NCBI GenBank assembly: GCA_039621445.1
Contig: CP154954.1
Location: 6,049,693 to 6,113,692 of the forward strand
Direction of reading: 5' to 3'
Source: Euglena gracilis
Taxonomy: Eukaryota
DNA length: 64,000 nucleotides
This document shows, piece by piece, positions 1,600-54,866 of this stretch. The notes below the pieces were generated by a model that worked only from the letters and a program-made list of their open reading frames with translations, had not been told where the DNA came from and ran no database searches. Both the position numbers and the translations under genes were made by a program. Position 1 is the stretch's first letter. Each line of letters opens with the position of its first letter.

Positions 1600-27148
<25,549 letters not shown>

Positions 27149-32900: not shown

Positions 32901-34881
32901 GGGTCACGGGGGAACACCACATTTTCGGTGGGCAAATTAGGAATCTCCGAAAACGAATTTTGGGGGGGAAATCCTTTTTGGCTCCAAATTAGGAATCCCT
33001 CAACCTAAAATTAGTATTTTGACACCAAATTAGGCATCACCAGTCTAAATTTTGCAAAATTTATGCCTCAAAATTAGGAATCTACCTGAATATTTGTCAA
33101 ATTAGGCTTTCACCGACCAAGTTTCTTTCAAAAAAAAACATTGCAAAAAATTTTCCGCCAAACCCTCCATGACGTTTTTTTTTGTTTTTTTTAAAAAACA
33201 TATTTTTTTTTAAAAAAAACAATTTTTTTTGTTTCAAAAAAAACAAGCCGTCAACCTTGATCTGGGGACCAGTGGGGTGGACATCCAAATTTGGTGGAAA
33301 TTGGCCCAGATTTGGAAATAGAGTACCGTGCAGTGTGGAAAGATCTGATGAGCACCGCTGGTCGTCTGTTGAAAAGAGCTTTCAATCGAGGGGTAACTTG
33401 GTACCCAAACGTTGCAAGCAGCCCGAGATACGCTCGCGATCGTCGGATCGGCCAGAATCTGAGTCGAAACTTGTGGTAATTTTCAGTGATTTTTGGTTTG
33501 AGATGCTGAATAAACCTTACAGAAACGTTTTTCTCTTCAAATCGACCATCTGAGGGGTCCTAGGGGGCACCAGAGTTTTGAAATTAGGGTTTCCCGGTGA
33601 CAGAAAATAAGAGCTCCAGGCGGCGTGGCTGAATTTGGTGGTGATCGCCAGTCGTCTGATAAAAAGAGGGTGAGTTTGTACTGGGACGATTGACACAGCC
33701 AGAAATACCTACCGATCGCCGGAATTCGGTGAAATGCAAAATGGCGTGACATTGTGGTCCTGGGAGTGTCCTTTGACCGAAGGTTGGGGACGCCGGTTCT
33801 GTCCTGAACCCGGCGTCTCTAAAAACGCCGCTTTAAACAAGGGGTGGCTGACGCCGGTTCTGTCCAAAGCCCGGCGTTCCGGACGCCTGTTCCGTCCGAA
33901 GGCCGGACCCGGCGTCCGGAACGCCGGACTTTGGACAGACCCGGCGTCCGCCACCCCTTTTTTGTTGTATGCTTGTTTTGGCGTTTTTTTTCTTCAAAAA
34001 AAAACATATTATTTTGTTCTTTTTTTAAAAAAAACACCAACTATGGATTGATGATTGGTTGATGAAATTGGTTTCATCTCCAAACCAAAAAAAGCCACCC
34101 TTTTTACGAGGTACCACCTCCCCCCCCCTAATTGACTGTGGGACCTCTCCACGGGACCCCCCTTTTGGTCAATTGGGGGGGTCAATTGGGGGGGGGTGCC
34201 GTCAATTAAGGGGGGGTACCGTCAAATAAGGGGTGCTTCAGCACGGAATCCCCAATTAGGGGGGGGGGGTTAAAAAATTCCCCGGGGCGTTTGGTCAATT
34301 GGGGGTTCAATTAGGGGGGGGACTGATCAAAAATTGACGCCCCCACTAGCAAATCCCCCCACGCCTGGGGAAATTTCATTGAAAACCCTCGTCGTGGAAC
34401 ACACATACTTCGATCCTACCAAATTCAAAAACTGCAAAAAAAATGTCAAAAAAAAACATCCAAAAATGAAAAAAATGCATTTTTTTTACTCTTTTCTTTT
34501 TTTTGTGTAAAGAAGTTCTTGGCAGAAATGACCCAAAAGTTGCCAAAAATGATTGAAAATGTGCATTGAAAAAATTTTACGTGCGAAACCTCGTGGGCGT
34601 TTTTTTCCTGTTTTTTTATAAAAAAAATGGTTGTTAAAATTACCATGACCCCCCCCCTTACTGTTTTGGTTGACATGCTTGAAAATTGCACCTCCACAAC
34701 ATCCATTTTGGCATTGGGTTGGATTTTGGTGGGATTGAGAGCAACTAAAACCGACCAAAAAATCTCCTTTTGCCTTGTGTTCCGAGAATCTTTTAAAAAA
34801 AAGTGCTATGGGGGTTGGGGACGCGGGGGGGACGCGGGGGGGGGGGGGGGGGCGGGGGGGGACGCGGGTCTGGGTACCATG

Positions 34882-35491: not shown

Positions 35492-35822
35492 GTACCATGC
35501 TGGTGTTTTTTTAAAAAAAAGTTTTTTGTTCTTTTTTATGAAAACAACAAAGAATGTGTGTTTTTCCTTCAAAATGGCAAAAAAAACGGGTTGTTTTTAA
35601 ATGCAGTTCTACAAGGCATTACCATCTCCTTGTTCTGCCCAACGCACCTTTGCACCCATTCTATTTCTTCTGTTTCTAGTTTTCTTTGGGTACTTGTTCG
35701 CTGTACGACCCCCACCCCCAAAACCACGACCCCCAAACGGCAGAGTCGAACCCTAACCCCAACCCTTATAGCAAAAACTGCGTCTTAGACGCAGACTCCG
35801 TCCCGAAAAAAACATGTTTCTT

Positions 35823-38584
35823 AAAAACGTGTTCAGCCCGCCAAATGCCTGCCCTGAAATTCGTGGTCATGAACACGTTTTCAATGAGGACATTTGTGGC
35901 AATGACACGTTTTCAGTGAAGGCATCTGTGTTCAGGCACGTTTTCAATGAGGGCATTTGTGGCAATGACACGTTTTCAGTGAAGGCATCTGTGTCCAGGC
36001 ACGTTTTCACTGAGGGCATCTATGGCAATCCCCAGCAAGAAAAATCGGCGTGCAAAATCGCAATCATGAAAAATCGGCGTGCGGTTGAGAGGCCGGGTGG
36101 TCCTCAACGGGTGAGGCGGGTCGGGGGCACTCTACAACACGAAGACGACAACAAGAAGGCTAGGTTGCCTTGGCACAACGACAGGGAAGGGGCGAAAATC
36201 ACGGCACACGACATGCTTTACACAAAAAAAGAGCCATACTTTGGTGGCCGCCGCAAATCTTGGCAATGAAAATGATATGCCAAACCGCAGGCGTCATAGA
36301 CAACTTGTTCAGCTCCACACAATTTGGATTTTTCGGAATGGCAACACCACAGAAACCACATTTCTCCTGTTTTATAGGCAGTCGGGACACAGCACGAGGC
36401 ACAGGGGGTTGGTCAGCGGAGGGAAAAGAGCTGACCGCAGGAGCGGAACGTTGCTCGGCGGTGGGAAAGACAGAGGGAACACTGGTTAGGTCCTGATTTT
36501 CGACCGAGTGTTCGTCACTTGGTGGGGCGCAAAAATTTGCCCAAGTTGACCACCGTGCAACGTTCCGCGCCGTAGCTGCACCGTCGTCGTCCTCCTCGGT
36601 TTTCAGGGTGACGGACGGCGGGCAGGCGGCCGAGGGTTGGGTGAGGTCGACGTAGTCTTCGTCAACGTTGATGGCAATCATGTGCTCACTGCGGAAGTGG
36701 TGACCATGAAATTTGAGGGTTTTTCTTTGGAAATACCTGGAAAATGGCGCGTATTCGGGCACATGCGGTGCAAAGAACTCCTCCTCGGTCATCAGTCTGT
36801 GGTGGATGACATAGGAACAGGGAAAAACATGCGTTTAGTACCCGATGGATTCAGCCTCTTTCTTCACGTCGGGAGTGGAGAGTTGCTGATCTGCTTTATC
36901 CTTCAAAGGCGCCCTGAGAGTTAATTAACAGGGATGAGAACGGAAAATTGAAACGTATAACACACGTCGTGCGCCGCCGTTTGGCCGATGCGCGAGAGAA
37001 AAGCACACGCCGCAACGGTTTCCCTTCGTGTTTGGTCTCACCACCGCCACTGTCGGCAACCTCACCCTTTGGTTCGGACTTTGTCCCCCGGGAAAGAATG
37101 GTGGCGGCTTTGACAGGGGTACTGCGTGACATTTGGTGGTAAATTTGGATGGTGTTGCGATGTACCATGAAGTACTTCGCGACATCATCCAGTGACAAGT
37201 CTGGCGCGTTGGCCAGTCTTGTCATCGCGGCTCTTCTGGCCACGTCTTTGAATGTCAACCGCCGGTCAACCTTGCTTGTTGCCCATGCAGCAACACCCCG
37301 GTACGTCTCCGGGGAGGTCTGCAGGGGTAACAAGGTGTTGATGGTGTATTTCGCGGAGTAACCAATTGCCATCCTTCCCGGGTGGAGCTTTTTCCACCAG
37401 CTACTTTTGTCGGCTGATTGCTGCAACCGGACACGACAGAGGATCGGATCCCTCAACGATCACCTGCCGCAGCAGAGCCGCATCCACCCGATCAAAAGCA
37501 GCTGGGTGATTCTTCATGGTTCCAATTGTTGCAGTCAACATTTTTCTGCCATCCACTGTAACCCCCTCTGAAGGAACCAACCTCCAGTCGACTCAACACC
37601 TCGCTGCGGAGGCCAGTGGTGAAACCCACCACCAGGATGTTCGCTCGTTGCGCCTCATAAGCGTTGGACCAGTTCACCCCCTTCAGCAACTGGTCCAACT
37701 CTTCAGGCTGCAACACGTCAGCTGGAGGCCGAACCGCCGTTGACACTGCCTTCCGTGCGCGTTCGCGCTCCAGGGAACGCGAAAACATCTCGTTGAAGTG
37801 GGGGAATTGGCGCTCTGAGGAAGGCAAAACTACTCCCTCGGGCGTTGTTGTGCGGAATCCCCGAGCGACGGCATTCAGGTATGTCCGAAAAGAGGTTGCC
37901 GAACGATTCCCTGAAACGAACAAAGTTCCCGACTGCTGCTCACGTTGAGCCACACATTGTTCAATGACGCTCGCCTCATCGAACAACAGGCTGGGTTCCA
38001 GCTCCCATCCCGTCCAGGCAACAAAGAAAGCATCCAGCTCAGGATAAGAGGCTTGCCGATGTTGACACAGTTTGGCGAACTCCAAACAGTTGGCAACAAC
38101 AAGCTCTGCACCCACGGAGCCGGACTTTTTCTTTGTGTTGCCCTGTGCCAGCAAGGTGCCATGAAGGGGGTCAACCTTCGGCTTCTTGGCATCTTGCTGG
38201 TATACCGCGAGAGCAGCCAGGAACAGTTCCGTCCTAGGGGGTGGTGGCAAAAGACCATTCACAAAGTTTGCCGTGCGTTTGGCCATATTGGCAGGGCTGC
38301 GGGAAAAAGGAAAAAAGAAAAAAGGGGGGGGTGACACGTTTTCAGTGAAGGCATTTGTGACAATGACACGTTTTCAATGAAGGCATCTGTGTTCAGGCAC
38401 GTTTTCAGTGAGGGCATTTGTGGCAATGACACGTTTTCAGTTAAGGCATCTGTGTTCAGGCACGTTTTCAATGAGGGCGCCGTTTTTTTGGGTCCGAATT
38501 TCACAAATTCGCATTTTTGACCCCTTGCGTGAATCATGACCACGAATTTCAGGGTAGGCATTTGGCGGGCTCTGAACACGTTTT
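35823..38584. mobile_element. Inverted-repeat-bounded unit holding the YR-PHD cassette and ACACGTTTTCA tandem arrays
   Basis: About 50-bp inverted repeats at 35823-35871 and 38534-38584; same-orientation arrays at 35870-36029 and 38332-38478. Confidence 0.7.
36199..38286 (-). pseudogene. Crypton-like tyrosine recombinase with downstream PHD finger, disrupted by frameshifts and a stop
   Basis: Reading across frameshifts gives SFRTYLNAVAR, GFTTGLRSE (catalytic R), TMKNHP (K), DPLSCPV and TFKDVARRAAMTRL..YFMVH..IQIY (R/H/Y), then CGFC...DACGLAYHFHC..PPKYG..LCKAC (PHD-like). Confidence 0.8.
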
Positions 38585-41085
38585 TTGATACGAAAACTGT
38601 GTCCAGAACGCCGGTTCGGGCGTGAAGCCGTGTTCCAGAACGCCGGTTCGGGCGGCCGCCCGAACCGGCGTTCTGGAACACGGCTTCACGCCCGAACCGG
38701 CGTTCTGGACACAGTTGTTGAAACCGTGGATTAGGGGCTCTGGCTTCACGCCCGAACCGGCGTTCAAGGAATCCAGGCCAATTTCGCTCTAAATACCCAT
38801 TTTTTGAACCTTTTTGAGCATTTTTTTTTTTTTTGATAGGAAGATTGAAGTTTTCACAAATGTGATGCCATGTTACCCATCAATCGAAAGCTCTTCTCAA
38901 TCATGTATTCCAAAAATTGACATCCTGATTTGTGAAATCCCACACCTCAGGTGCCATACGGCATATCAATCGAAAGCTCTCCCCATGAGCTTTCATTTGG
39001 TTCCCTTAAAACTCAGCCACACTGCATAACGCTCTGAAAATTGCCGATCGCATGTTCCGACCCTTTTCGCAAATTCCAAAATCCACTGTGCACCTGCTGT
39101 GGGGGGGGTTGGTACACCCCTCCCCCCCCCCTCTCTGAGGGGCTCGCCACGCCATTTACCCCCCCTCCCTCTTCCTACAGCCGGCAGACACAATTATTGG
39201 ACCCCGCTGGACATTTTCGTTGGCCCCCGCTGGACAGGAAATGGGAGACTGGGGGACTTTTCTGTAGAGCCCCCAGGGAGACAAATAGAAAACCCCCCGG
39301 CCCATGAAGTTTTGGCCCCGATGGACACTTTTTGCAGGGAAACCCGTCTGAAACCTGGAACTGAAAATTCCACGGCAGACGTTGCGATTCAAATGAAATT
39401 AGGGGGAATGTCTTTGAGAGTCTGCGTATTGATCATCTTCCACCCAAAAGGTGGGGCTAAGCCACAACTCCCAAAGTGTCACAAATGTGGAAGGCAGAGG
39501 GATCATCCAGTAACTTCTCTGAAGCTGTTCCACACTGTCTCTCATTACCATGCCACACATTCACATTGATGACCAAACTTTCTGAAGCAACCTTTCTTGG
39601 TAGCAATGAACATTCCCTAAACATTGCAATTGTGGTTTGTGCCCATGTTTGAACAAATATGCAAAAAATATAAAAAAATAACCTTCACGCGTAAACAGTT
39701 TTGTGTCTACTGCGTATCATGCAAAGCAAGAGGCAACGGTGGCTGTGACGGGGTACACAGCTTTTCAAAATCACTAAACTCACCTTAATTCAGATCATGT
39801 GAAAATACCACCCCCCCCCCCCTTTATTGTCCCACCGACCTGCCCCCGGGAGGCCCGACCGGACAATAAAGGGGGGGGGGGACAATAAAGGGGTACCAAA
39901 GGAATTTCATTGGCCGGGCCAAAAAAAACCCCAGTCGGCCGGGGCCCAGGGACAATAAAGGGGGGGGGGACAATAAAGGGGGGGGGTACAATGTACAGCT
40001 TTTTATGGGTCATTTAACAAAACAGGTGGTCTCTTTGCCGGCCAACATCCAAAACACTCTCTCGACTTTTACGAATGTCACCATCTTTGCACAAATGTTT
40101 CTCCATATGTAAATCAACAGACACTAACGATTTCAGCAGGGGCGCCGGGCCGTGCGAGCGAAGCGAGCGGCCCGGTGCCCCTGCTGAAATCGTTATTGTC
40201 TGTTGATTTACTAAAACCTATTTTGTCTGGGCCCGCACGTCTGCCTTGAAAATTCATTCGACCGATGCAACTGGCTTGAGTTTTGGCCGGTTTTGTCTTT
40301 TTTTTCAAGAAAACGTACACCGTCTTGGAAATCGTTTTACACTAACGGATCCCTGTCTTGGAAATTGTTTTACACTAACAATAGCCTGTCTTGGAAATCG
40401 TTTTACACTAACAGAATTGGCCTGAAATCCATTAGTGTCTGTAGAAATTCAAGTCAGGCGTCGGGCCAGGAAATAGGTTTTAAAAAAAAAGCTGTTTGGT
40501 CCATCACCAGGTGAGCTGGGACACAGAATGTTACAGGCCGATCAGGTTGGCGAATGCCCAATATCGTTCACTCAAAGGGCTTGTTTCAGACCTTTTTGTT
40601 GTGCGAATCCGAAAACTGCTGCAGTGTGGGGGGAAAAAAGCATTTGGTAAAGGTCTGGCCTGCTCCTCTCAGTCTTCTCCATCCACTCACGCATATAACA
40701 ATAGTATGGACCCAGCATGTCCACAACAGGCACCTTCTCAGTGTGGGTTTCAAATTCTTCAAAATCTGGATGTCCTCCATGTTTTTTTCCCACCCACCTC
40801 AGTGAAAAAGCGCTTTTTCTGGTTCCTTTGAATCAAAGTTAAATTGATTTCCCCATTCTTACATAACGTGCCCCCCCCCCTATTTGTCCCTCCCCCCAAT
40901 TGGCATGAGCCCAATTGGCCAATGAGGGGGCGGCGGGGGTACTCGTTTCAAAGCCTTAGAACAAAAAATGTCTTTCCAGTCGAGGCAGTGGCATTGTCAG
41001 CACAACCCACAGGTATGTTTTTTTTATTGAATTTAAGGGTTATCGACACGTTCCTTTGAGATCAAACATTGATGTTCTTTGAATT

Positions 41086-41644: not shown

Positions 41645-42645
41645 CGGATTTTCAGATTTTTCTTTTCAATTTTCAGGACCCCCGGCCCCCGAAGGAGAAG
41701 GGGGGGGTCGGATTTTTTTGAATTTTCAGGAACCCCGGCCCCCGAAGTAAAGGGGGGGGGGGCGGTTGGATGTTTGAATTTTCGGATTTTTTTGAGTTTT
41801 CAGGAGCCCCGGCCCCCGAAGGAGGGGGGGGAGGGCGGTTGGATTTTTGAATTTTCAGTTTGTTGGAATAATTCGGACCCCGGCACCCGAAGGAAAGGGG
41901 GGGGGGGTTGTGTTTTTTAATTTTCAGTTTGTCGGAATAATTCGGACCCCGGCCACGAAAGGAAAGAGGGGGGGGGGTTGGATTTTTGAATTTTCGGATT
42001 ATTTTGAATTTTCAGGACCCCCGGACCCCAAAGGAAGGGAGGGGGGGGCGGTTGGATTTTTGAATTTTCAGTAACTTTGGGTAATTCGGAACCCGGCCCC
42101 CGAAGGAAAAGGGGGGGGGGCGGTTGAATTTTTTAATTTTCAGATTTTTTTGAATATTTAGGTCCCCCGGCCCCCGAAGGAATGGGGGGGGGGAGGCGGT
42201 TGTATTTCTGAATTTTCAGTTTGTTGGATTAATTCGGACCCCGGCACCCGAACGAAAGGGGGGTTTGGCTTTTTGAATTTTCAGTTTGTTGGAATAATTC
42301 GGACCCCGGCCACCAAAGGAAAGGGGGGGGGGTTGGATTTTTGAATTTTCGGATTATTTTGAATTTTCAGGACCCCCGGACCCCAAAGGAAGCGGGGGAG
42401 GCGGTTGGATTTTTGAATTTTCAGTTACTTTGGGTAATTCGGACCCCGGCCCCCGAAGGAAAGGGGGGGGGCGTTTGGACTTTTGTATTTTCGGATTTCT
42501 TTGAATTCTCAGGACCCCCGGCCCCCGAAGTAAAGGGGGGGGGGGGCGATTGGATTTTTTAATGTTCGGATTATTTTGAATTTTCAGGACCCCCGGACCC
42601 CAAAGGAAGGGGGGGGGGCGGTTGGATTTTTGAATTTTCAGTTAC
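41645..42645. repeat. About 60-65-bp degenerate tandem array (TTTTGAATTTTCAGGACCCCGGCCCCCGAAGG...)
   Basis: About 15 units seen directly. Confidence 0.88.
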
Positions 42646-43865
42646 TGCGGGAGGCCATGGCCAACATCAACCCACCGTCAACACCTACTCCTGCACCACC
42701 AACTACTACTACTCCCCCATCTACTACACCAACCTCAACTCCATCTACCGCGACCCCGAACCGCACTACGCCAACAACCCTGCACCCGACACCAACACCT
42801 ACTTCAATCCCTTCCACACCGTCGACGGCTGTCGGGAGCGGCGGCGCGGGCGGCGGATTCGGGCCCCGGTGGCCGCGCGGAGCCCGCGGCGGGCAATGGC
42901 GGCGCTTCGCCGCCTACCAAGCCCCCTTCGCACCAACACAATACCCGCATCCGCAATTCTACCCTTTCCCTCCCCCATTCCCGTCCCTTCCTTACCCCCC
43001 CACCTTTCCCATATTGCTGATGAATCCATTGTGGCTCCACGGGAGCCATGGTGGTGGCATGCCCTGTGGATCTGAGAAGGAAAACCCCCTTTTTTTCTTT
43101 ACATCATAAGGCTGTTCCATCAGACAAGAGCGGAATCCAACACAAATTCTCCCAAGAAAGCTTTTCCCCGACCACCGCAATTTTATCCTGTGCTTTTTTG
43201 TTTTTATTTGTTTCACATTCTGTGCCCAAGATGCCAAGACCATGCTCGGAAAGAAATAAGAATGGGGGGGGTGATTGAAACCGCCCACAAGTGGCCTCAA
43301 TGGTGCGAGCCGGGTTGGCTCGCAAGGGGGGGAGTGTTGGCGGAATGGGTCCGCCAAGGGGTTGGCAGGAACAGCCAAATAGCGCAACCCACAGCGGAAC
43401 AAATTAGAACCCAGTCTAAAGGTTTGATGAAACAAAAATCTTTCTCTTATCCACAGGGTCCTTCTGTTTTCTTTCTACCACTCTTATCCCTTCTACTACC
43501 ATCACCACAACTTGTGCTTCACATTGGTGTTCCCATTCATTTTGCTGCATTTGATTCAAGACTTCTTCCAAAGGGTTTCCAAAGGGATTCATTGACTCTT
43601 TCCGAAGTAGTCTTTCACCCATTGTCCAGGATTGTTCTTTTTTTTCCAAAGCAAAGTCCCTCAATTTTCTCTTGCAAACTGTTTGGTGTGAGATAGGACC
43701 TGAGCCCATCCACAAGGAAACAAACTTTTGCGACACCTCGGGCTCCGCACTTTGCCATTTTGAGGCCATGCCTTGCTCGCCGGCGGTTTGTTGTGATTGT
43801 TTGCTGCGCTGGGTTAGGAGGTCCCGCTTAGTGCCTTTTTTCGCCGGAGTTGGCTGATTCTTAGC

Positions 43866-45290
43866 TTGCCCTTCGACACCCAGAAGAAAGGAACAGAGTC
43901 AACGAACGAAGAAGAACCAAGAAAAGAAGTCAAATACCAATTCAATATCCAGAAGGACACGAACCAGACGAATATCAACTCAAAAATCAATTATCAAATT
44001 TCAAATTTGACTTCAATGAGCAATGCAGTTGAGAAGAAATTGGAATTTCATGGCCGCGGACGTCTTGGAGCAGAGGCCGCAGCAGCAGCTGGAGAACTTG
44101 GAGATGCGGTCGACACGTGGCAAACCGTGGCCGTTCTTCCCACCCAGACCCCCACCCCAGAAATTTCCCACAAAAACCCCCCCAGTGACGGCCACGGTCC
44201 TTGGACCACTGTGGCCAGAAGGCCCAGAAAACAGAAGTCAGCCCCAACCCTCAGTGGGCCAAGGATGGGCCATGGAGGCCCAAAATGCTTCAGCATTGGA
44301 CAGCCAAAGCCCACAGATCAGGGGCTTTTCCCCCAAGCCTGCACACAATTTGGCCAAAGGCTGGGGAGATGGAATCAAGGCCAAGGAGGTCACCATTACA
44401 GGGGACATGGGGGCCAATTTTACAAGCAAATCCCCTCAGGAAGGGGCAGAAAAGGTCTGTCAAACCCCCCCAATTCATCTTACACAACAGCCCCTCTCAG
44501 GGGGACAAGGGGGGACCACAGCAGCCCCCCCATATTTCCAATGGGGTTGGAGGCCAAGAAGAACTCAAGGCCCACAAGACCAAGAGATGGATTATGGAAA
44601 AAAATTTATATATGGAGTCCTTGGAAGCCAGCAGGGTGGACCCACAGTGGCCACCAAGAAGCTAAGGGGCATCATCCCCAACCAGCAGGGTGGACCCACA
44701 GTGGCCACCAAGAAGCTAAGGATGCTGCTGGTGAAATCCCCCGAGGGACCCACAGAGGCCCTCTGCCTAAAATGGGGGAAAAAGGGACCCACAGTGGCCC
44801 TTTCAATGACCCAGCCCCAGGAGGAAAATGGACCCACAGTGGCCCTTGTGGAGGGAGGGGCAGGAACCCCTCCAACAATTATTCCTCAATTTCCAATGAT
44901 TCAATCAAGGGGGGGACCCACAGAGGCCCCCCTATGGTATGTCAACCAACCACATCAACATGGAGAAGACCAGATAGGCCAAACAGGGGCAGTAAGCCCT
45001 ATGGTATGTCTTCCAACAACAAGATCATCCAGAGAGGTGAGCAGAGAGGGAGAGAGTGCATGCACATCCCCCCAGAAAATATTTCTTTTTCCAAGGGCCC
45101 AAGCCCTAGGGGACCTAAGGGTGCAATGTCCAACACCCCCAACCCAACCCCCCCACAATCATCTTGTCCAGAAAATAAATTCAATGGAGGAAACGAAGGG
45201 AGACACCCCCCTCCATCAAAGGTTGCAAAAAAGCCTGAAATGTCCCACCCCCAGCCCAGCCCCCCCAAAATCATCTCATCCAAGAAATAA
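43866..45290 (+). CDS. DIRS A ORF1 (gag-like, low complexity)
   Basis: Long ORF just after the left ITR; shares DGHGPWTTV with ORF1 of copy B. Confidence 0.55.
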   Translation: MPFDTQKKGTESTNEEEPRKEVKYQFNIQKDTNQTNINSKINYQISNLTSMSNAVEKKLEFHGRGRLGAEAAAAAGELGDAVDTWQTVAVLPTQTPTPEISHKNPPSDGHGPWTTVARRPRKQKSAPTLSGPRMGHGGPKCFSIGQPKPTDQGLFPQACTQFGQRLGRWNQGQGGHHYRGHGGQFYKQIPSGRGRKGLSNPPNSSYTTAPLRGTRGDHSSPPIFPMGLEAKKNSRPTRPRDGLWKKIYIWSPWKPAGWTHSGHQEAKGHHPQPAGWTHSGHQEAKDAAGEIPRGTHRGPLPKMGEKGTHSGPFNDPAPGGKWTHSGPCGGRGRNPSNNYSSISNDSIKGGTHRGPPMVCQPTTSTWRRPDRPNRGSKPYGMSSNNKIIQRGEQRGRECMHIPPENISFSKGPSPRGPKGAMSNTPNPTPPQSSCPENKFNGGNEGRHPPPSKVAKKPEMSHPQPSPPKIISSKK

Positions 45291-45434
45291 ATTCCATGGA
45301 GGAAAAATGGGGAGACACCCCCCTCCATCAAAGGCTGCAAAAAAGCTTGAAATGGTGGACAAAAATGCCCCCCCCCAACAACATGTCAACTCATCAGGGA
45401 TGGCATTCAACCCCCCTGGGTCTGCCCACCAAAA

Positions 45435-46620
45435 TTGTCCACCCACCCAAAACCCAGAGCCAACCTGGACCTGAACCAGGCAGAAAAAATCCTGCTGGAT
45501 TACGAAAAAACTGGGTCAATAAAACGAGTTTGGGATTCAGAAACCCAGCATTTAATCCCATGGTTTCTAATTTCAAAACCAGAAGGGGGAACAACCAAAT
45601 GGAGAATGATCAGCGACTGCAGAGAATTAAATCAGCAGTTTCGTGTGAAACCTTTCAAGCTGGATCACATCCAGCACATTTTTCCAGTTTTGGAAAAAGG
45701 CCACTGGGCAGCAAAAATAGACCTGAAGGATGCCTATTTTCATATTCCAGTAAGTCCAGGCCTAAGGCCATTTTTAAGGCATCAGGTGGGGGGGGGGGCA
45801 GACCTGGGAATTCCAGGCAGGCTGTTTTGGCCTGAATGTGATGCCCCAAATTTTCATGTCAGTCATGAAAACATTCGAAAAACTGTGGAGGAAAAGGGGC
45901 ATCCAGGTATTTATTTACCTGGACGACATTTTACTGGTGGCCCCAACACAAATCACCTTACAAAATCACGTGAACACAGTGGTCAGGGATTTAATCAAAT
46001 CAGGATTCAAAACCAATGTAAAAAAGTCCACCCTGCAGCCCACACAAATCGTAAATCATCTTGGATTTCAACTAAACTTCCAAGAGGGAAAATTACAGGT
46101 GCCCCCCCAGAAAAAAAAACAGCTGGGAAAAGTGGTGAAAAAAGATTACATGTCAAAAAGGCAACTGGCTGCCATTTTGGGCCAAATAAGATGCAATCTG
46201 ATGGCCCTGCCCTTTCTAAGGGCCTTTACGGATGCCATGGCAAATTTTTTGGTGGAAAATTCCACAGCCCCCTGGGACTCAAAACACCCCATTTCCCAAA
46301 GAATAAAGGCCCAATTAAGGGAAATAAAAATTCTGCTGGACACCTGGGGTGGCAGACCCTTCCCCCGAAGTGCAACCAGGGAGTTGCACTCAGACAGCAG
46401 CACCCACGCATGGGGGGGACTGGACATTCGAACAGGCAAAATTGTGCAAGAATTGTGGAGGGAAAGCTCCATTTTGCACATAAACGTCAAAGAATTAAGT
46501 GCAGCAATAAGCACAGTTCAAAGCCTCAGCCAACCAGGAGAAACTGTGTCCCTGTCAGTGGACAATCAAGTAATTTACTATTACTTAACAAAGGGGGGGG
46601 GGCAGAAAAGACCCCTTCAA
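45435..46620 (+). CDS. DIRS A reverse transcriptase-RNase H (frameshift at a poly-G run near 45790)
   Basis: WRMISDCRELN, KIDLKDAYFHIP, YLDDILL, HSDSSTHAWGG, HINVKEL, VDNQ. Confidence 0.9.
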
Positions 46621-46624
46621 TTCC

Positions 46625-47245
46625 ATGCTAAGACCCTTCTTCAAATGGTGCATGGAGCACAACGTAAACCTGCAAGTAAAGTGGGTCCCTTCAAAGGAAT
46701 GCCTGGCAGACCCCATAATCAGGTGGGAAATGGACAGGGGGGATTATTCCCTGGACCCCCAACTTTTTCAATGGCTGAGGCAGCAGTTCAAAAATTACAT
46801 CACCCTGAAAACAGACCTTTTTGCCTCACCAGGCAACAAAAAACTGCCACAATTTGTGGCCAGGTGGCCCCACTGGGAAGCCACAGCAGTGGATGCATTG
46901 CAATGTCCACTGGACAACATGGGGGGCCTTTATGCAAACCCCCCCTGGTCTGTAATTCAAAAATTTCTCCCCAGATTAAGAGTGTTTCCACAAGCCAAAG
47001 TTTTGATGGTCACCCCCTACTGGGATTCAGCCACATGGTGGCCCCAGTTAATAAAAATGAAAGTACCAGGGACCCCCTGCCTGAAAATCACCCCTTACAA
47101 GGGTATGTTTACCAATTGCAGGGGGGAAAAAATGCCACCCCCCAGGTGGCCCCTCCTTTGCATGATTTGCTCAGGCAAATTTTGTAGGGGAAACAAATAC
47201 AAAATTCAACCATTACAGATTTCCTGGGAAGAAACCCCAGTTTGA
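46625..47245 (+). CDS. DIRS A N6-adenine methyltransferase-like domain
   Basis: TDLFASPGN (motif I), YANPPW (catalytic motif IV), VTPYWDSATWW. Confidence 0.85.
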   Translation: MLRPFFKWCMEHNVNLQVKWVPSKECLADPIIRWEMDRGDYSLDPQLFQWLRQQFKNYITLKTDLFASPGNKKLPQFVARWPHWEATAVDALQCPLDNMGGLYANPPWSVIQKFLPRLRVFPQAKVLMVTPYWDSATWWPQLIKMKVPGTPCLKITPYKGMFTNCRGEKMPPPRWPLLCMICSGKFCRGNKYKIQPLQISWEETPV

Positions 47246-48070
47246 AAAGGTACCAAAGTGCCTTTACGCTTTTATGGGTGATTCTGGAAAAAATGGGGGT
47301 ACCCCCCCCTGAAGCCACCACTGACCAAGTGGTTGACGCTTTAATTCAACTGTTTCAATTTTCAAAGGCCCAAGCACGCAATGCATACAGTGCTATGCTA
47401 TTGATCCCTGGCTTTGGGGGCCTGATGTTCCATGCCATGTTGGCACCTTACAAAAGGCTTTGGAACCAAAACCTGGAGAAATATGGTGCATTCTGGGATC
47501 CCCTCCCAATCCTCCTGGGGCTGGCACAGTCCCCCCTGCCCTCTGATATATGTACATTGCGTACACAACTCATTTCCTGTTCACGAATCCTCTGTTTATA
47601 CAGAAGTTCTGATTTGGCACAGGTCCAAAGAACCACCAGTGTGTGGGGGGGGGGGCACCCTACATCAAAATTAAACGTAAAGGGCAAAAATTCCATAAGT
47701 GGGAGCGGGTTGTCTCCATACCCCAGTGCCCCCAAATCAGCCCCTTTCGTTTAATGCTGTCTTATGTGGCAGCAACACGTTTCTTTGTGAAACCTGGGGG
47801 CCCCCTCTTAATTTACGTTAAAACCCCCCTACAAAGCCATTAAGGCAGATACCATTGCTTCTATCACCAAAGACGTTTTGACCAAACAGGGGGTGCCCCC
47901 CCAGGTTTGGGGACCCCACTCCACCAGAGGGGCAGGGGTTGGTTTGCTCAAAAAATTGGGCCTTTCTGCCCAAGAAGTTTGTGAAATTGTTCAATGGAAG
48001 GGGGTGGAGGCTTTTACAGCCCATTATCAAAGACTTGGTGCCCAAGGTTCTTTGGAGAATGCCCTGGCCC
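47242..48070 (+). CDS. DIRS A tyrosine recombinase (frameshifted)
   Basis: LYRSSDL, HSTRGAG, QWKG..AFTAHY across frameshifts. Confidence 0.85.
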
Positions 48071-48645
48071 CCCTTTTTTCAGTGCACAATCTGGCCTCAC
48101 AATGGCAAAGTGCGGAGCCCGAGGTGTCTCGTACTCCCTCGAGGCAGACCGAGAAGGGAGGAAGGGACACCGAGGGCGAAGCACAAAGACATTGTGAGAC
48201 CGACCCCCCCACCCATATAAGAAAATTTGTCTTCAAACGCCCTCGATCAGAAGATGGGGGCCAGGGGGGGGGGGAGGTGGGGGGGGACCCCCCCAGGCAA
48301 AGAAACAGTGCCATGGTCGCCACGTCGGAGACGATGCAGCCAACTGCGGCGAGGCGGCACTAAGCGGGACCTCCTAACCCAGCGCAGCAAACAATCACAA
48401 CAAACCGCCGGCGAGCAAGGCATGGCCTCACAATGTCTTTGTGCTTCGCCCTCGGTGTCCCTTCCTCCCTTCTCGGTCTGCCTCGAGGGAGTACGAACCA
48501 AAGGGAAAATGCCAGGGGGGAATTCAAGGACCATTCGGGCTCCGCACTGCGAGATGGTGAGGTCCTGCTTTCCTTGCCGGCTGTTCTGTTCTGGTGTGTT
48601 TGTGCGTGCGCGGGGGGTGCTTCTTACTGCTTTTTGTAGCCGGAG

Positions 48646-49764
48646 TTGGCTGATTCCTATTTCTGCCCTTCGACCTCAAGGAGAAATAATTTTACTTCTA
48701 CGACTCAAGTGGACGAAAATTTTCGGAACTTCAACTTCCTGACGGAAGAATTCAACTTTTCGAAGATCAACAACGAGACTTCCATGAAGAATGAATTTCA
48801 AAGAACCTTTGAATTTCAAGAAGAACTTCAACGGACTTCCAAGAAGTCAATTGAAGCTGGGGAAGGTGGAGACACAGCAGCAGCTGCAGCAGCTGGAGGG
48901 GCGGCAACAGCTCGTCAGTCCGTGGCCATCGCAACCCCCCCACCCCCCAACGCTTCAGAGATTTCAAAACTCAAGGTTTCAGACTACCCCACTAACAATG
49001 ATGGCCATGGACCATGGACAACTGTGGTCAGGAAGAGACGACAGAGGGGGACCACCATCACAGGTCCAACAGACTCCACCCCTTTTTCGCAGTTCCTCCC
49101 CTTTCAGGGGAAAAAGCAAAGGCTATGGCAGCCTCAATCCAAAGGATTCAAATCAAAGTCAAGGCTATGGCAGCCATCATTGGACAGGGCCAGGGGCCCA
49201 GAATCATGGCTATGGAAGCCATCATCCAAGAGGGCAGTGGGCCCAGGAGCAAGGCTATGGCAGCCTGTGTCCAAACCTGGGAAGCTCCCATGGAGGAAAG
49301 GTATGTCCAACTTACCCCACAGCTCCCTCAAACACAAACCCCTCAGGAGCTGCACATCCAGTCAAGCAACCCCCCCTTCAAAGGCCAATGGAGGCCATAT
49401 GCAAGGGCCCAATGGGGGCAATCAAAGCATCAAGAAAAAGGCCATCCAAAAAAGATGGCGAGACACAAAAAGCAAAGGATCAATGGGAAAATCAAGCAAA
49501 ATGAACAGGATGGAGCCAAGAACAAGGGGCACAGCCAGCCCGGGGGGGGCCAAGAGAAACCCAGAAGCAGGGCAAGCCAAAAGGACCCCATGGGGCCAGC
49601 ACAGCAGACCCCATTGGGAAGCCAGGGGCCCATTCAGACCAGGGGGCCAGGGAGGACCCCATGATGCCACCCATGGAGGCCAGGGACCCAGGCAGGTGCC
49701 CCATTCAGGCCTGGAGGCCAGCATTCCATTGGGGGGGAGGCCCAGAGGTACAAACAGGGAGTAA
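48646..49764 (+). CDS. DIRS B ORF1 (gag-like)
   Basis: Long ORF with DGHGPWTTV and repeated RLWQP motifs. Confidence 0.55.
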   Translation: MADSYFCPSTSRRNNFTSTTQVDENFRNFNFLTEEFNFSKINNETSMKNEFQRTFEFQEELQRTSKKSIEAGEGGDTAAAAAAGGAATARQSVAIATPPPPNASEISKLKVSDYPTNNDGHGPWTTVVRKRRQRGTTITGPTDSTPFSQFLPFQGKKQRLWQPQSKGFKSKSRLWQPSLDRARGPESWLWKPSSKRAVGPGARLWQPVSKPGKLPWRKGMSNLPHSSLKHKPLRSCTSSQATPPSKANGGHMQGPNGGNQSIKKKAIQKRWRDTKSKGSMGKSSKMNRMEPRTRGTASPGGAKRNPEAGQAKRTPWGQHSRPHWEARGPFRPGGQGGPHDATHGGQGPRQVPHSGLEASIPLGGRPRGTNRE

Positions 49765-50139
49765 TCAGCCAAACCCCCCCCTATATATGTACCCCATTGC
49801 AGACACAACTTTCCCCAATCAAAATCAGGACTGTCTTTGGCCCCCTATGGCAGGGCCAGATTTCCCAGTGATGGGCAGCCAGGCAGGACCCCAGATGGGG
49901 CAGCCAGACCCCATTAAACCTGCAGGACAGGGGGAAGGGGTCAGTGATGGGGCCTGTGGATCCCCCACATTCACCCAGGTCATTCGCAGGCCAGCATTCC
50001 CCATTGGGTCAAGGCAGGGGCCAGCACAGAGGTATTAAACCTGATAAGGGAAGGGGTCAGGGCAGATCTTCCCCTCCCCCCTCAGATGTCCTTAAAAATT
50101 CCCTTCAAAACTCCCCAAGAAATGACTGCCCAAAAAATT

Positions 50140-51190
50140 CTGAGGGAATACGATGTGCAGGGGCAACCAGGCAAATCACCCCAGAGGGAGCAAAACATTT
50201 TGTCCCCTATTTTATCATTTCCAAACAGGAAGGAAAGGAAAGATTAATTTCAGATTGTCGACAGTTAAATCAACATTTCACCCCCCAGAAGTTCAGACTG
50301 GAACACATAGGAAACATTTTCCCATATCTCAGAAAGGGTTGGTTCTGTGGAAAAATAGATCTAAAGCTGCACAGCAGCCTGGAAAAGCATGTCTGCATGC
50401 AAGTGGGGGGGGAAACGTGGCAATTTCAAGCTGCATGCTTTGGGATAAGCAGCCTGCCACAAAAGTTTATGACTCTCATGAGAGTCTGGGAAAGGAAATG
50501 GAGGAAGGAAGGAAAGGTAGTTTTCATCTACCTAGACGACATTTTGCTGTTAGCCCCCAGCAAAAAGACAGCAGCCCAGCATTTAGCAGAAATGAAAAAA
50601 GATCTTTTACTGGCAGGTTTCAGAATAAACCTCCCCAAATCATGTCTGGAACCAACACAAGAAATAAAGCATTTGGGCCAGTGGATCAATTTGAAAAAAG
50701 GCCAGCTGGAAATTCCACAGGAAAAATTAAAATCCCTAAGAAAGGAATTAGGAAAGGTGCTGACAGCACAAAAGATGAGCTGCAGAAAACTCAGCTCTAT
50801 TGTGGGGCAAGTCAGAAGCTATTTAGTTTCAATGCCTTTTCTCAGAATTCTGACAGATCAACTTTGCAAAATGGTGGATTTGCACACAAAGTGGGGTTGG
50901 GACCACACCCTGACCATTCCCCAGGGGGTCAAAGATCAAATTGTGGAGTTAAAAACGTTTTTGCAGCCAGGTGTGGGCAGAGCCTTTCAATCCCAGGCCT
51001 CTCAGGAACTGTTCTCAGACAGCAGCACCTGGCAATGGGGGGGGCTGGACAAAAAGTCTGGTCAAAAGGTCCAGGATTTCTGGAGGGACCTGCCTGTCCT
51101 TCACATCAATCAAAAAGAATTGATGTCTGCAGTGGAAACTGTAAAGGCTTTGGCAAAACCAAAACAAACCATTGTTCTTCATGTGGGCAG
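50140..51190 (+). CDS. DIRS B reverse transcriptase-RNase H (small internal deletion after KIDLK)
   Basis: RLISDCRQLN, KIDLK, YLDDILL, FSDSSTWQWGG, HINQKEL. Confidence 0.88.
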
Positions 51191-52660
51191 TCAGTTATTT
51201 GACAAAATGGGGAGGCAAAAAGCCATATTTAAATTCCATCCTAAAACCCCTTCTGTACCATTGCCAAGAAAGGCAAATCAACTTGCAGGTGGTTTGGGTT
51301 CCCACAAAAGAACAATTGGCAGACTCCCTGACCAGGGAGCAAAAAGATCCAGGGGATTATACCCTGAACCTGACCATTTTTCACCAGATTCTGAAGTTTT
51401 TCAAAAACCACATCACCCCAGAGGTGGACATGTTTTGCACACCCAGCAACAAAAAATTCCCCAAGTTCATTTGTCGATACCCCCACCAAGGGGCTTTGTT
51501 GGTGGATGCTCTGAAGGCAGATTTAAGGGGTCTCCCCCCAGTTTATGCCAACCCTCCCTGGAGCATCATTCCCCAATGGGTTCAGAGATTAATGTTAAAC
51601 CCAGACCTAATTTGTCTGTTGATTGTACCCCACTGGGCTTCGACATCATGGTGGCGCCAATTAATGTCAATCAGGCAGCCAGGCAGCAAGGTTTTGCTAG
51701 TACCCCCCCCACCAACTGCTGGGGGGGAGGAGATGCCCCCCCCCAAGGTGGAATTTGGCCTGCTTGATTGTGTCAGGCAAATATTACAATCCCAGGAACT
51801 TTCGATGTCCAGTATCGACACTTACATAAAAAATCTGGGAAATGTCAAAAGATATGACTCAGCCTTCAGGGCATTGGTGGGTCAATTATTGCACAAAGGG
51901 GTGCCTCTGCAGCAGTGCACAGTCCCCAAGATGGCTGAAGCCATCCTTGATCTTGCTGTTCATAGCATCAATACTGCACGAAATGCATATGCAGCAGCCT
52001 TATTACTCCCAGGGTTTGGGTCTTTGAGATTTTCACCCCTTCTGGCTCCATTGAAAAGGAAGTGGAATGCCAATGTCTGCAAGTATGCCCACTTTTGGGA
52101 CCCCACTGATTTCCTAGAAAACATCATGAGGAATTCCACACCCCTCTCAGACCTATCTGTGAAAGAGCTCAGAAACAGACTCATCATCTGTTGGAGGCTT
52201 TTGGCCCTCCACAGGGGGGTTGATTTAGCCAGGACAAAGCGAAAAATCAGTTTCGTGGGAGAAAAATTTTTCATTTTATTGCAAAGGAAAGGGTGGCAAT
52301 TCCCAAAATGGGAAGAGATTTTGAATTTGCCACACACCCCCCTCATAAGCCCATGGCATTTATTGAAAGAGTATGCGGAAAGGACAGCCCACATGGTTGG
52401 GCACAAAAATAATTTGTTGTGGTCTTTGGATGGTAAAAGACCTTTGACATCAGAAAGGGTGAATTCCCTAACCAAAGAAATTCTGCAGGGGGGGGGTGGA
52501 CACCACCCACTGGAAACCCCACAGCACCAGAGGGGCTGGGGTCTTATGGTGGAAAAATGCTGGTTTGCAAGTGGAAGAAGTCCAGCAGCTGGGTCAGTGG
52601 AAAAATTTTGGTGCCTTCCAAGCTCATTATTTGAGGCTGGGAGTCGTGTCAAAAATTTAA
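51172..52660 (+). CDS. DIRS B methyltransferase and tyrosine recombinase region
   Basis: VDMFCTPSN, YANPPW, LHRGVDL; HSTRGAG and HYLR appear after a poly-G frameshift near 52490. Confidence 0.85.
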
Positions 52661-53215
52661 AAATATTATGGCCCAAAGGGGGGTGCACAGTACCTCACCA
52701 TCTCGCAGTGCGGAGCCCGAATGGTCTCGGGCTCCCACGACAAAGGAAGGGGGAGGAAGGGACCAAGAGGGCGAAGCACAAGAAGATGGTGAGCCCAACC
52801 CCCCCCCCCCAAAAAATCAAAGAAAAACAACCCCAACAGAAAAAGGAACCCCAACCAAACAGCCCCAAACACCCACCCAGAAACACAAAAAAAAACCACC
52901 ATCGCCATCAGGGGGGGGGGGCTCACCAAGCGACCATGGGAGAGGGGGGGGCGGGGCCACGGCGGTTCAGCTTCGCCAAGGTGTCGGAGGAGGCCTCATC
53001 ATCGCCAACTCCGGCAACAAAGGCGCAGTAAGAAGCACCCCCGCGCACGCACAAACACACCAGAACAAAACAGCCGGCAAGGAAAGCAGGACCTCACCAT
53101 CTTCTTGTGCTTCGCCCTCTTGGTCCCTTCCTCCCCCTTCCTTTGTCGTGGGAGTCCGAAAGTGGATCCTACGCTTACGGAAAAGGGCAAACCCCAAGTC
53201 AACCCGGCAAAAGGC

Positions 53216-53355
53216 AAAAGGCGAGCACGGCATAGCCTCACAATGTCTTTGTGCTTCGCCCTCGGTGACCCTTCCTCCCTTTTCGGCTTTCCTCGAGGGA
53301 CACCTCGGGCTCCGCAATTTGCCGGTGAGCAAGGCATGGCCTCACAATGGCAAAG
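53216..53355 (+). mobile_element. Remnant of a DIRS A-family right ITR joined to a left terminus
   Basis: Diverged copy of 48410-48490 followed directly by CACCTCGGGCTCCGCA, the left-end sequence of copy A. Confidence 0.75.
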
Positions 53356-54866
53356 GCGGTGAAAAAAATCGAAAACGAATTCTGTCCGAAACGATGTTTT
53401 TTGGCCTCCCGGCTCCGGAAAAAGCTGTTTTTGAGCTGAACTTTGCACCAAAAAACATCCACCCCAAACGTCCCCCACATCCACCCAGACATAACCGCAG
53501 TCGCTCCACTTTATGCCTTTTGTGAAAACAACCCCAAAAGACGGAAGTGCGGAAATTTTGCCAAATCAAAAAAAGTAAAAAACCCACAAAAAACGCTTTT
53601 GGCCTCTCTCTGCTCGGCAGGAAATGATGGTTCCAGCACCGAAGCATGCACTGATGGGGATGTCTTGCCTTGGGGATGTCACGTCAAAAAGTATATAATG
53701 CCAAAGCAAAAAAAAAAAAAACGAAGGACAGGAATTATTGCGATCGACAGACAGATCAATCAGGACTGTCTGCAAGCTGCAGAAAACGTTCAACGCGGGG
53801 AACAAAAACAGGGAGAGAAAATGATGCCACTTTCATACAAGGTGACAGACATGCACCAGGAAAGAATCATTCTGGTATATGGCATCGACAAACAATAGAA
53901 AAAAAAAAAAAAAAACAGAGAAAAACAAAAAAGAAAACAAAAATATACAATCTTTCGGTGAATCATCAGAACTTCATTTTCAGAACAATTTGACATCCTG
54001 AAAAACTGCAATATTCGGCATTTATAAACTGCTTTTAACACAGGAATACATGATTTGGGAAAAGAGTAACTCATGATTCAATTCATCCCAAAATCCAGGG
54101 GAGGGAGGAGGGATAATTTTCATAATCTCCAAAACAAACAGTTTCTGTGGAAAATTCTTAGGGTTAGTGAGCCATGAAAATGAATTTACAGCTACCTGAT
54201 GAACGGACCCCAAGAGGCTGTCCACTCATGTGAGGTTAATTAGTCCGGTAACTGTTTCAATTCTTCCAGCTTTGGTTCACTGGCCCCGAAACTAATGTTG
54301 GACTGAAATATTTGCCACATTTCAAATCGCGTTTCGGGTAAAATTTGGCCTAATTTCGGCCTGAAGGAAACCAACCCATTGCATCATTAACCATTACACT
54401 AATGAACCCTAACAGACCACTGACTAACCAAACCCTATATCCTGACCAACAACCACTACCCTATTTAAGAAAAAAAATGCTAACCCATATCACGAAACAA
54501 GCTTCGGCACATAACCAACATCTAGTATGCAGTTGCCAACTTTCTCTTGATCAATCAAAATGGGGACATACCTTTGGCTGCAAATTTTCAAATGATGCAA
54601 ATTGAGATTCCAAATCACATTTGTAGTTGCAATAATATAACATTCAACATTCGATGATGAGCAAAACTGTGGACAATTTCTGTGATGCATTTGCTCAAAG
54701 ACCAACAGCAAAATTCCACCGAAAAAGATGTGCGAATTGTGATCACAGAAGGAGTGGAGTAAGCATCTGGTCAAATTTGGGAGTTGACATCTCTGTTCAA
54801 ATCCTGGCCACCTGGTCACCACTTTAAGCAACGCATTGGGGGCTGGGAGGATCGCCAAACCGGCGT

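Follow-up and report, generated by a model that had tools for sequence, protein, structure and literature searches.

A 64,000-nt stretch of Euglena gracilis DNA (GenBank assembly GCA_039621445.1, contig CP154954.1, positions 6,049,693 through 6,113,692 of the forward strand; herein the window) carries a dead copy of a small transposon whose sole gene encodes a tyrosine recombinase (YR), very probably fused to a PHD finger. It belongs to a well-defined and apparently undescribed group of YR DNA transposons, whose members insert precisely at a mimic of their own 3′ end and begin with a hairpin followed by an inverted copy of that end. The initial annotation of this sequence had placed a Crypton-like YR-PHD unit at 36199..38286; the motifs are there, but the element core, from inner inverted repeat to 3′ terminus, reaches 35823–38585 (minus strand) and includes inverted repeats that were missed earlier. 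From the arrangement of the ends we tentatively suggest movement as a folded single strand, which, if true, would be a mode of transposition new to eukaryotic DNA transposons. A literature search, with Repbase, Goodwin 2003, theses, figures, and most supplements outside its reach, found no published description of this group.

Copies, ends, and insertion sites

The genome (2.37 Gb, 46 contigs) was searched for family A, to which the window copy belongs, and 40 of 5,238 candidates were scored; these gave 154 matches, ~24 of them near full length at 93 to 99% identity. Intact copies, for which the initial annotation had proposed to look, are present: 30 loci were fetched and 28 of them parsed, and in 11 of these a recombinase and PHD frame of 664 to 666 residues is open after removal of two introns. 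Among 761 candidates for a 181-bp query from the 5′ end, 40 matched perfectly, on four contigs; most of the 30 loci fetched with it are internally deleted copies of ~1.5 kb, and non-autonomous derivatives are present in the group. Protein searches revealed further families at 59 to 65% identity over the catalytic part, and a distant relative used as query led to families at ~30% identity to family A. Copies of family E are 99 to 100% identical and are found on many contigs (the query included three flank bases, a slight bias). The eight families examined span 30 to 56% protein identity; their full-length units measure 2.5 to 2.95 kb and contain YR, linker, and PHD only, with no reverse transcriptase (RT), as the initial annotation had stated. 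The dispersed, near-identical copies are those of an abundant, recently spread mobile element, a repeat class that has had no name so far in this 2.37-Gb genome. Among metagenome and viral contigs, 475 and 116 pattern matches, respectively, gave no confirmed relative; the end structure is therefore verified in this genome alone.

Full-length family A copies begin with a 5′ hairpin whose arms measure ~52 bp; directly behind it comes an inverted copy of the 3′ terminus. The same layout is found in families B through E and in the distant families F through H. Inverted repeats of 35 to 50 bp, a hairpin with 50- to 60-bp arms, and subterminal arrays occur group-wide. The first 215 and last 60 bases of one representative per family (eight families) were folded with ViennaRNA, and each of the eight formed two stems that abut, leaving the 5′ TA end unpaired. 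All eight start with TA, their inner junction equals the 3′ end plus A (the first base of the target), and the hairpin loop on the coding strand is C-GNA-G, the middle base varying (A, C, or T). Loops of the type d(GNA) closed by C:G are described as unusually stable in DNA in the relevant passage of PMC3201870. Of 28 copies of family A selected by their body, 25 have the loop in the same orientation, one (L023) has it flipped, and two have it broken; with one flipped loop in 28, flip-flop replication as in hairpin-ended viruses was set aside. At 20 distant loci a C-GAA-G hairpin lies at the 5′ end (10) or farther upstream (1), a tip-deleted palindrome replaces it (3), or none occurs within the fetched flank (6). 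Another set of 26 hairpins was left out of the orientation count, and its left-flank counts, biased by a query with four flank bases, were not used. Because the inverted copy of the 3′ end stands beside the 5′ hairpin, one strand would be able to fold both termini together.

The insertion sites follow a simple rule. The family A target is TTTY^AA, with TTT and Y in 16 of 16 sites; that of family E is ACAY^A, the 25 sites having A (19), Y (23), A (23), and Y (25) before the junction and A (25) after it. Each family's target motif resembles its own 3′ end; left flank and 3′ end match imperfectly over 4 to 5 bp. Empty paralogous sites (two in family A, at least seven in family E) show nothing added or lost; one of them, the empty paralog of a site filled in L004 and L008, lies in the window at 8139–8189. 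A TA target duplication is ruled out by these sites, and in family E 23 of 25 insertions share no bases and two share two. Bases of the left flank always come from the target and those of the right end always from the element, the pattern predicted if a single strand exchange alone is inherited. Elements often insert into each other's ends and inner junctions. Insertion is precise, free of duplication, and sequence-directed at a mimic of the element's 3′ end; being scarless, at a 5- to 6-bp site that differs by family, it may be of interest for genome engineering.

Two unusual arrangements were seen among the copies. In L058 two element bodies lie head to head around one hairpin, with the inner junction on both sides, which may reflect fold-back replication or a crossover between the arms. 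In L152-L151, L154, and L016 head-to-tail joints are identical to the predicted circle joint; they may be insertions into an element's own 3′ end or tandem products.

The tyrosine recombinase and its PHD finger

An AlphaFold model of the recombinase from an intact sister copy, built on 52 sequences, has a predicted local distance difference test score (pLDDT) of 93.6. Its best match is Cre (Foldseek E 9.9e-9; Z 18.5; root mean square deviation 3.8 Å over 300 residues), the whole two-domain fold being matched, core-binding and catalytic, at 13% identity (Protein Data Bank [PDB]: 1kbu, 1ma7). The YR motifs of the initial annotation, which lie on the minus strand, thus belong to a YR fold. A protelomerase reading was set aside because the fold match is well below that to Cre (Z 8.6 to 9.3 vs. 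18.5) and because the junctions lie outside the hairpin, not at its center. At the sequence level the intact 466-residue frame has no Pfam match and no PDB match, the family profile finds only XerA (E 1.9), and Phage_integrase is touched by 8 of 52 members (best E 0.001). At E ≤0.001 the recombinase is matched by 234 representatives (50% clustering). The sole named one among them, P0001, is a 48%-identical relative annotated as a hypothetical protein of Genlisea aurea, a carnivorous plant; it lies on a contig of 1.9 kb and likely represents protist contamination.

The alignment of relatives (numbering of the intact L006 protein) shows conservation of R228 (50 of 51), K260 (44 of 46), R354 (34 of 36), and Y386 (31 of 34), which likely form the catalytic core. 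K350 is kept in 29 of 36 relatives, with Arg in 5, and D351 and R355 are also conserved; three residues before Arg II, at the position of the His in HxxR, 31 of 36 have Asp. The box reported as an atypical KDVARR is therefore a family trait, FKDxxRR, and not the product of decay. Of the late His and Tyr noted at the outset, the Tyr stands, but H379 occurs in only 11 of 33 aligned relatives, and the residue nine before the Tyr is Gly in 26 of 34. Compared with Cre, both His/Trp positions of the catalytic pocket are replaced, an assignment made by spacing with the canonical spacing as commonly given. A K-D-x-R box occurs in topoisomerase IB and protelomerases. In this enzyme, the role of the missing histidines would fall to K350 and R355. 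Between family A subfamilies the ratio of nonsynonymous to synonymous change (pN/pS) of the YR is 0.23 to 0.33; this purifying signal, the residue conservation, and the recent spread suggest an active catalyst and point to a working tyrosine recombinase that lacks the canonical histidines.

Two breaks taken at the outset for damage (36914–36965 and 36797–36841) are GT-AG introns, of 52 nt (intron 1, predicted) and 45 nt (intron 2). Their removal would very probably join recombinase and PHD in one protein, fusion requiring that of intron 1. The 45-nt skip of intron 2 is seen in five RNA reads from five starts in X21 and in one read in X22; none was seen in X24 or X2 reads. Both introns are kept in 27 of 28 aligned family A copies, the remaining copy having a deletion there, and L079, a 68%-identical relative, carries introns at both positions that are likewise GT-AG but differ in sequence; this copy is broken, and no open fusion was found in it. 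Five database proteins (P0015, P0033, P0049, P0158, and P0174) encode YR and PHD in a single frame, and a PHD is visible in 3 among the 150 matches listed, most of which are fragments or end at introns. In sister families, the PHD lies downstream of the YR at 16 of 20 and 15 of 20 loci. The linkage claimed in the initial annotation is thereby borne out, and neither of the two outcomes that it had named as contrary to its reading, a repaired protein lacking a YR fold and a PHD never found with the YR elsewhere, was observed.

Three results speak against obligate fusion: RNA reads contain no spliced intron 1 (depth there <1), one X2 contig crosses intron 1 unspliced, and exon 2 has no purifying signal between subfamilies. 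A YR-only protein of 466 residues may therefore also be made through retention of intron 1. A separate PHD protein is unlikely because families C and D have no in-frame Met ahead of the finger and L079 has no exon 3 Met. Within the linker two short motifs, an acidic stretch with LTQPS and APP..QDL..P.FP, are conserved across distant families (L006 exon 3; P0015, P0120, P0158, and P0174).

The finger itself has C4HC3 ligands that are invariant in 10 of 10 sequences. It scores against Pfam PHD at E 6e-5; 8 of 10 fingers match that family (best E 7.6e-6), with L006 at 23.4 bits vs. a cut-off of 24. A profile of the fingers matches those of PHF10, ING1, PHF21A, and KAT6A at E ~6e-6, there are 0 nonsynonymous vs. 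3 to 4 synonymous changes between family A subfamilies, and the host H3 tail is canonical, all of which would suit a finger that reads a histone mark and steers insertion. We regard that role as doubtful. Trp two residues before the His ligand is a methyl-K4 cage residue in readers such as ING1; here this position holds A, E, S, T, or Y (Tyr in 4 of the 10 fingers) and Trp in none, making a methyl-K4 cage unlikely, and the insertion sites are explained by DNA sequence. The PHD likely helps the enzyme engage nucleosomes.

Possible route of movement and relation to known elements

The abutting stems suggest an account of movement that we find plausible, if a little short of an even chance: the element may move as a folded single strand, being excised and integrated in that form, with replication resolving the outcome. 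While exposed at replication, the coding strand would fold; its inner and 3′ inverted repeats would pair into a stem on which the stem of the 5′ hairpin stacks, and the stacked stems would align both termini on one continuous partner strand. The recombinase would cut one strand at each terminus and join the ends into a single-stranded circle, which one strand exchange would then put into a pyrimidine^A site resembling the element's 3′ end. Replication would resolve the insertion junction, as for integron attC sites, where the product of single-strand recombination is described as so resolved in the relevant passage of PMC3458562. Integron attC/IntI (PMC3458562) and strand-biased circularizing elements of Vibrio (PMC9345347) provide, in the sections concerned, precedents for tyrosine recombinases that act on or produce one specific strand; those systems are bacterial and of another architecture, and single-strand use is proven there, whereas here it is proposed by analogy.

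Several observations weigh against a folded single strand. The element's 5′ T would be mispaired at ligation. Copies with deleted hairpin tips stand at separate sites with intact ends (L105, L107, L119, L122, and L127), and the loop may thus be dispensable. Folding energies computed with ViennaRNA are equal for both strands, so that the case for one particular strand depends on the rule published for the loop. The eight families are related to each other and form a non-independent sample. Finally, the rule that the target mimics the element's end holds also for CryptonF-1_cRei, where the relevant passage of PMC9977147 takes it as ordinary site-specific recombination.

That parallel is the starting point of an explanation of the Crypton type, in which a double-stranded circle recombines between the element's end and a similar target while hairpin and inverted repeats are accessory, as binding sites or an aid to replication. 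The resemblance of target to 3′ end (TTTY in 16 of 16 sites in A; an ACAY consensus over 25 sites in E) fits this explanation, as do the tip deletions in dispersed copies and the spacing of binding motifs across the circle joint, which by eye looks equal in families A through E. We consider it rather unlikely, since it leaves unexplained why the inner mirror of both ends and the strand-specific C-GNA-G loop are kept at ~30% protein identity. Moreover, two staggered exchanges over imperfect homology would be expected to leave swapped spacer bases at some junctions, and none were found.

In composition the group is nonetheless Crypton-like. As in Cryptons, the YR is the sole enzyme, there is no RT, non-autonomous derivatives occur, true target duplications are missing, and the target is like one end. 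Cryptons are characterized, in the relevant part of PMC3212892, by an R-H-R-Y tetrad and by having neither terminal inverted repeats nor long direct repeats. By its sequence, the present group fails two of these defining features, the absence of inverted repeats and the R-H-R-Y tetrad; it differs by its inverted repeats, hairpin, arrays, FKDxxRR box, and PHD. The original Crypton/DUF3504 label is not supported: DUF3504 (CryptonA) is not among the 25 listed of 28 families matching 52 relatives at E 0.1. A genome search for DUF3504 found none, its controls also being blank, and GCR1_C (CryptonF) was not found in the C-terminal exon, where matches were of PHD type only. A PHD is named in the legend to Fig. 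4B of PMC9977147, so that a Crypton with a PHD may exist in Chlamydomonas.

The self-complementary ends invite comparison with DIRS1-like retroelements, which the pertinent section of PMC3266345 describes as having inverted repeats, an internal sequence with complementarity to either end, no target duplication, and a variable HSTR box. In 8 of 8 families of the present group, an internal region is likewise complementary to the two termini, and the group could on these grounds be an RT-less DIRS-like element, its inner mirror serving as the internal complementary region and its RNA copy being acted on in trans by a DIRS RT. DIRS-like elements with RT and Dam do lie in the window at 45351–53028, and among named Atlas clusters the nearest are eukaryotic ALOG/phage-integrase proteins. 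Such an origin is improbable: 27 of 28 copies keep their introns although intron 2 is spliced in RNA, the unit has no gag, RT, RNase H, or methyltransferase, and the family YR profile does not match the neighboring DIRS recombinase region. The layout differs as well, the mirror standing here beside the 5′ end, next to the hairpin, and in DIRS1-like elements near the 3′ end. The group shows DIRS-like self-complementary ends in an element that has no reverse transcriptase.

Still less probable is movement by an HUH enzyme of the Helitron2 or Replitron type that uses the hairpin and asymmetric inverted repeats, with the YR-PHD as passenger. Helitron2 has, according to the passage concerned in PMC3627910, asymmetric inverted repeats, terminal hairpins, and insertion after TTTT with no duplication. 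The present group likewise has inverted repeats in an asymmetric arrangement, one of them bordered on its outer side by a hairpin, and family A inserts precisely behind a T-rich motif. Helitron2 differs in its Rep/helicase and in its repeats of 8 to 15 bp (PMC3627910, same passage); this unit encodes no Rep/helicase, and no search of the genome for an HUH partner acting in trans was made. The YR is the sole gene in every full-length family examined, with conserved catalytic residues, and the target preference varies by family together with the family's own ends. The ciliate elements Tec1 and Tec2 carry a DDE transposase beside their YR, as stated in the relevant part of PMC3212892; this unit has no second gene.

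If the element does move as a folded single strand, the group might be ranked, as we suggest with more caution, as a new superfamily of eukaryotic DNA transposons. It would be defined by a folded single-stranded DNA dumbbell, an FKDxxRR tyrosine recombinase whose remodeled active site has no histidines, a single exchange resolved by replication, and a PHD for chromatin access, and would be a eukaryotic counterpart of the integron type with a possible link between Cryptons and DIRS ends. The mechanism of Crypton transposition has, according to the passage concerned in PMC13565253, had no experimental demonstration to date. The small, young, intact, and transcribed elements described here have exact ends and give explicit structural predictions, which make a transposition mechanism testable.

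The window copy and its surroundings

Full-length family A sisters are ~2.9 kb long, including a ~120-bp 5′ hairpin that is missing from the window copy. The copy (all features except the arrays on the minus strand unless stated) ends in a 3′ inverted repeat of ~50 bp, the terminus itself (35823–35872; inverted-repeat match of 38 nt at 97%), adjoined by a target-derived AA at 35821–35822. A 3′ subterminal array follows at 35873–36029, with a 63-bp unit of two 31/32-bp repeats that contain the terminal motif, and a 5′ array of the same unit and orientation lies at 38332–38478; the 31/32-bp repeats are likely recombinase binding sites. The inner inverted repeat, complementary to the 3′ terminus, occupies 38534–38585. 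In between, exon 1 (36966–38286) encodes the Cre-like recombinase, exon 2 (36842–36913) measures 72 nt, and exon 3 (36199–36796) encodes the linker, with LTQPS at 36631–36645 and the APP..QDL motif, and then the C4HC3 PHD finger (36211–36360). The reading frame starts with ATG at 38286, and its motifs are TGLRSE (37600–37617), MKNHP (37503–37517), CPVAA (37419–37433), FKDVARR (37232–37252), MVHRNT (37151–37168), and QIYHQ (37133–37147). The PHD pieces are CGFCG (36346–36360), DACG (36284–36301), YHFHC (36263–36277), and LCKAC (36211–36225), and the stop ends at 36199.

Lesions were called against the intact sister L006, which is 98.3% identical. The recombinase has a 2-bp deletion near 37571, a TAG at 37401–37403, and a 5-bp deletion near 37359, and the PHD finger is broken by a 1-bp deletion near 36307 and a 1-bp insertion near 36230; an in-frame loss of 3 bp lies near 38102. 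With four frameshifting indels and one TAG the copy is dead, as the initial annotation had concluded. L002 (G000:C1, ~2 Mb away) duplicates the window copy together with its flanks; it has the TAG and the 5-bp deletion in common with it and lacks two of the frameshifts.

Where the family A hairpin normally joins, exactly at the inner junction, the window copy has the 5′ end of a sister family (38586–38765, plus strand), with a perfect palindrome of 61-bp arms (38595–38716) and its own inner repeat; in L030, another family's 5′ end is likewise found at the inner junction. Beyond the 3′ end, 35766–35800 (plus strand) is a truncated stretch that resembles sister family I (L119) in its 5′ end and first hairpin arm, and the window copy thus has sister-family fragments on both sides.

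Elsewhere in the window, a decayed family H-like end with an inner repeat and a hairpin of 63-bp arms and a GAA loop lies at 33782–33963. Two DIRS-like retroelements at 43800–53500 (plus strand) have RT matches, a Dam-like methyltransferase (E 4e-4), and an HSTR-type recombinase region that is unrelated to the present YR by profile. An inverted repeat with 44-bp arms at 40109–40211 is matched close to other family copies, and 8577–9509 and 41711–42643 are each a long tandem array.
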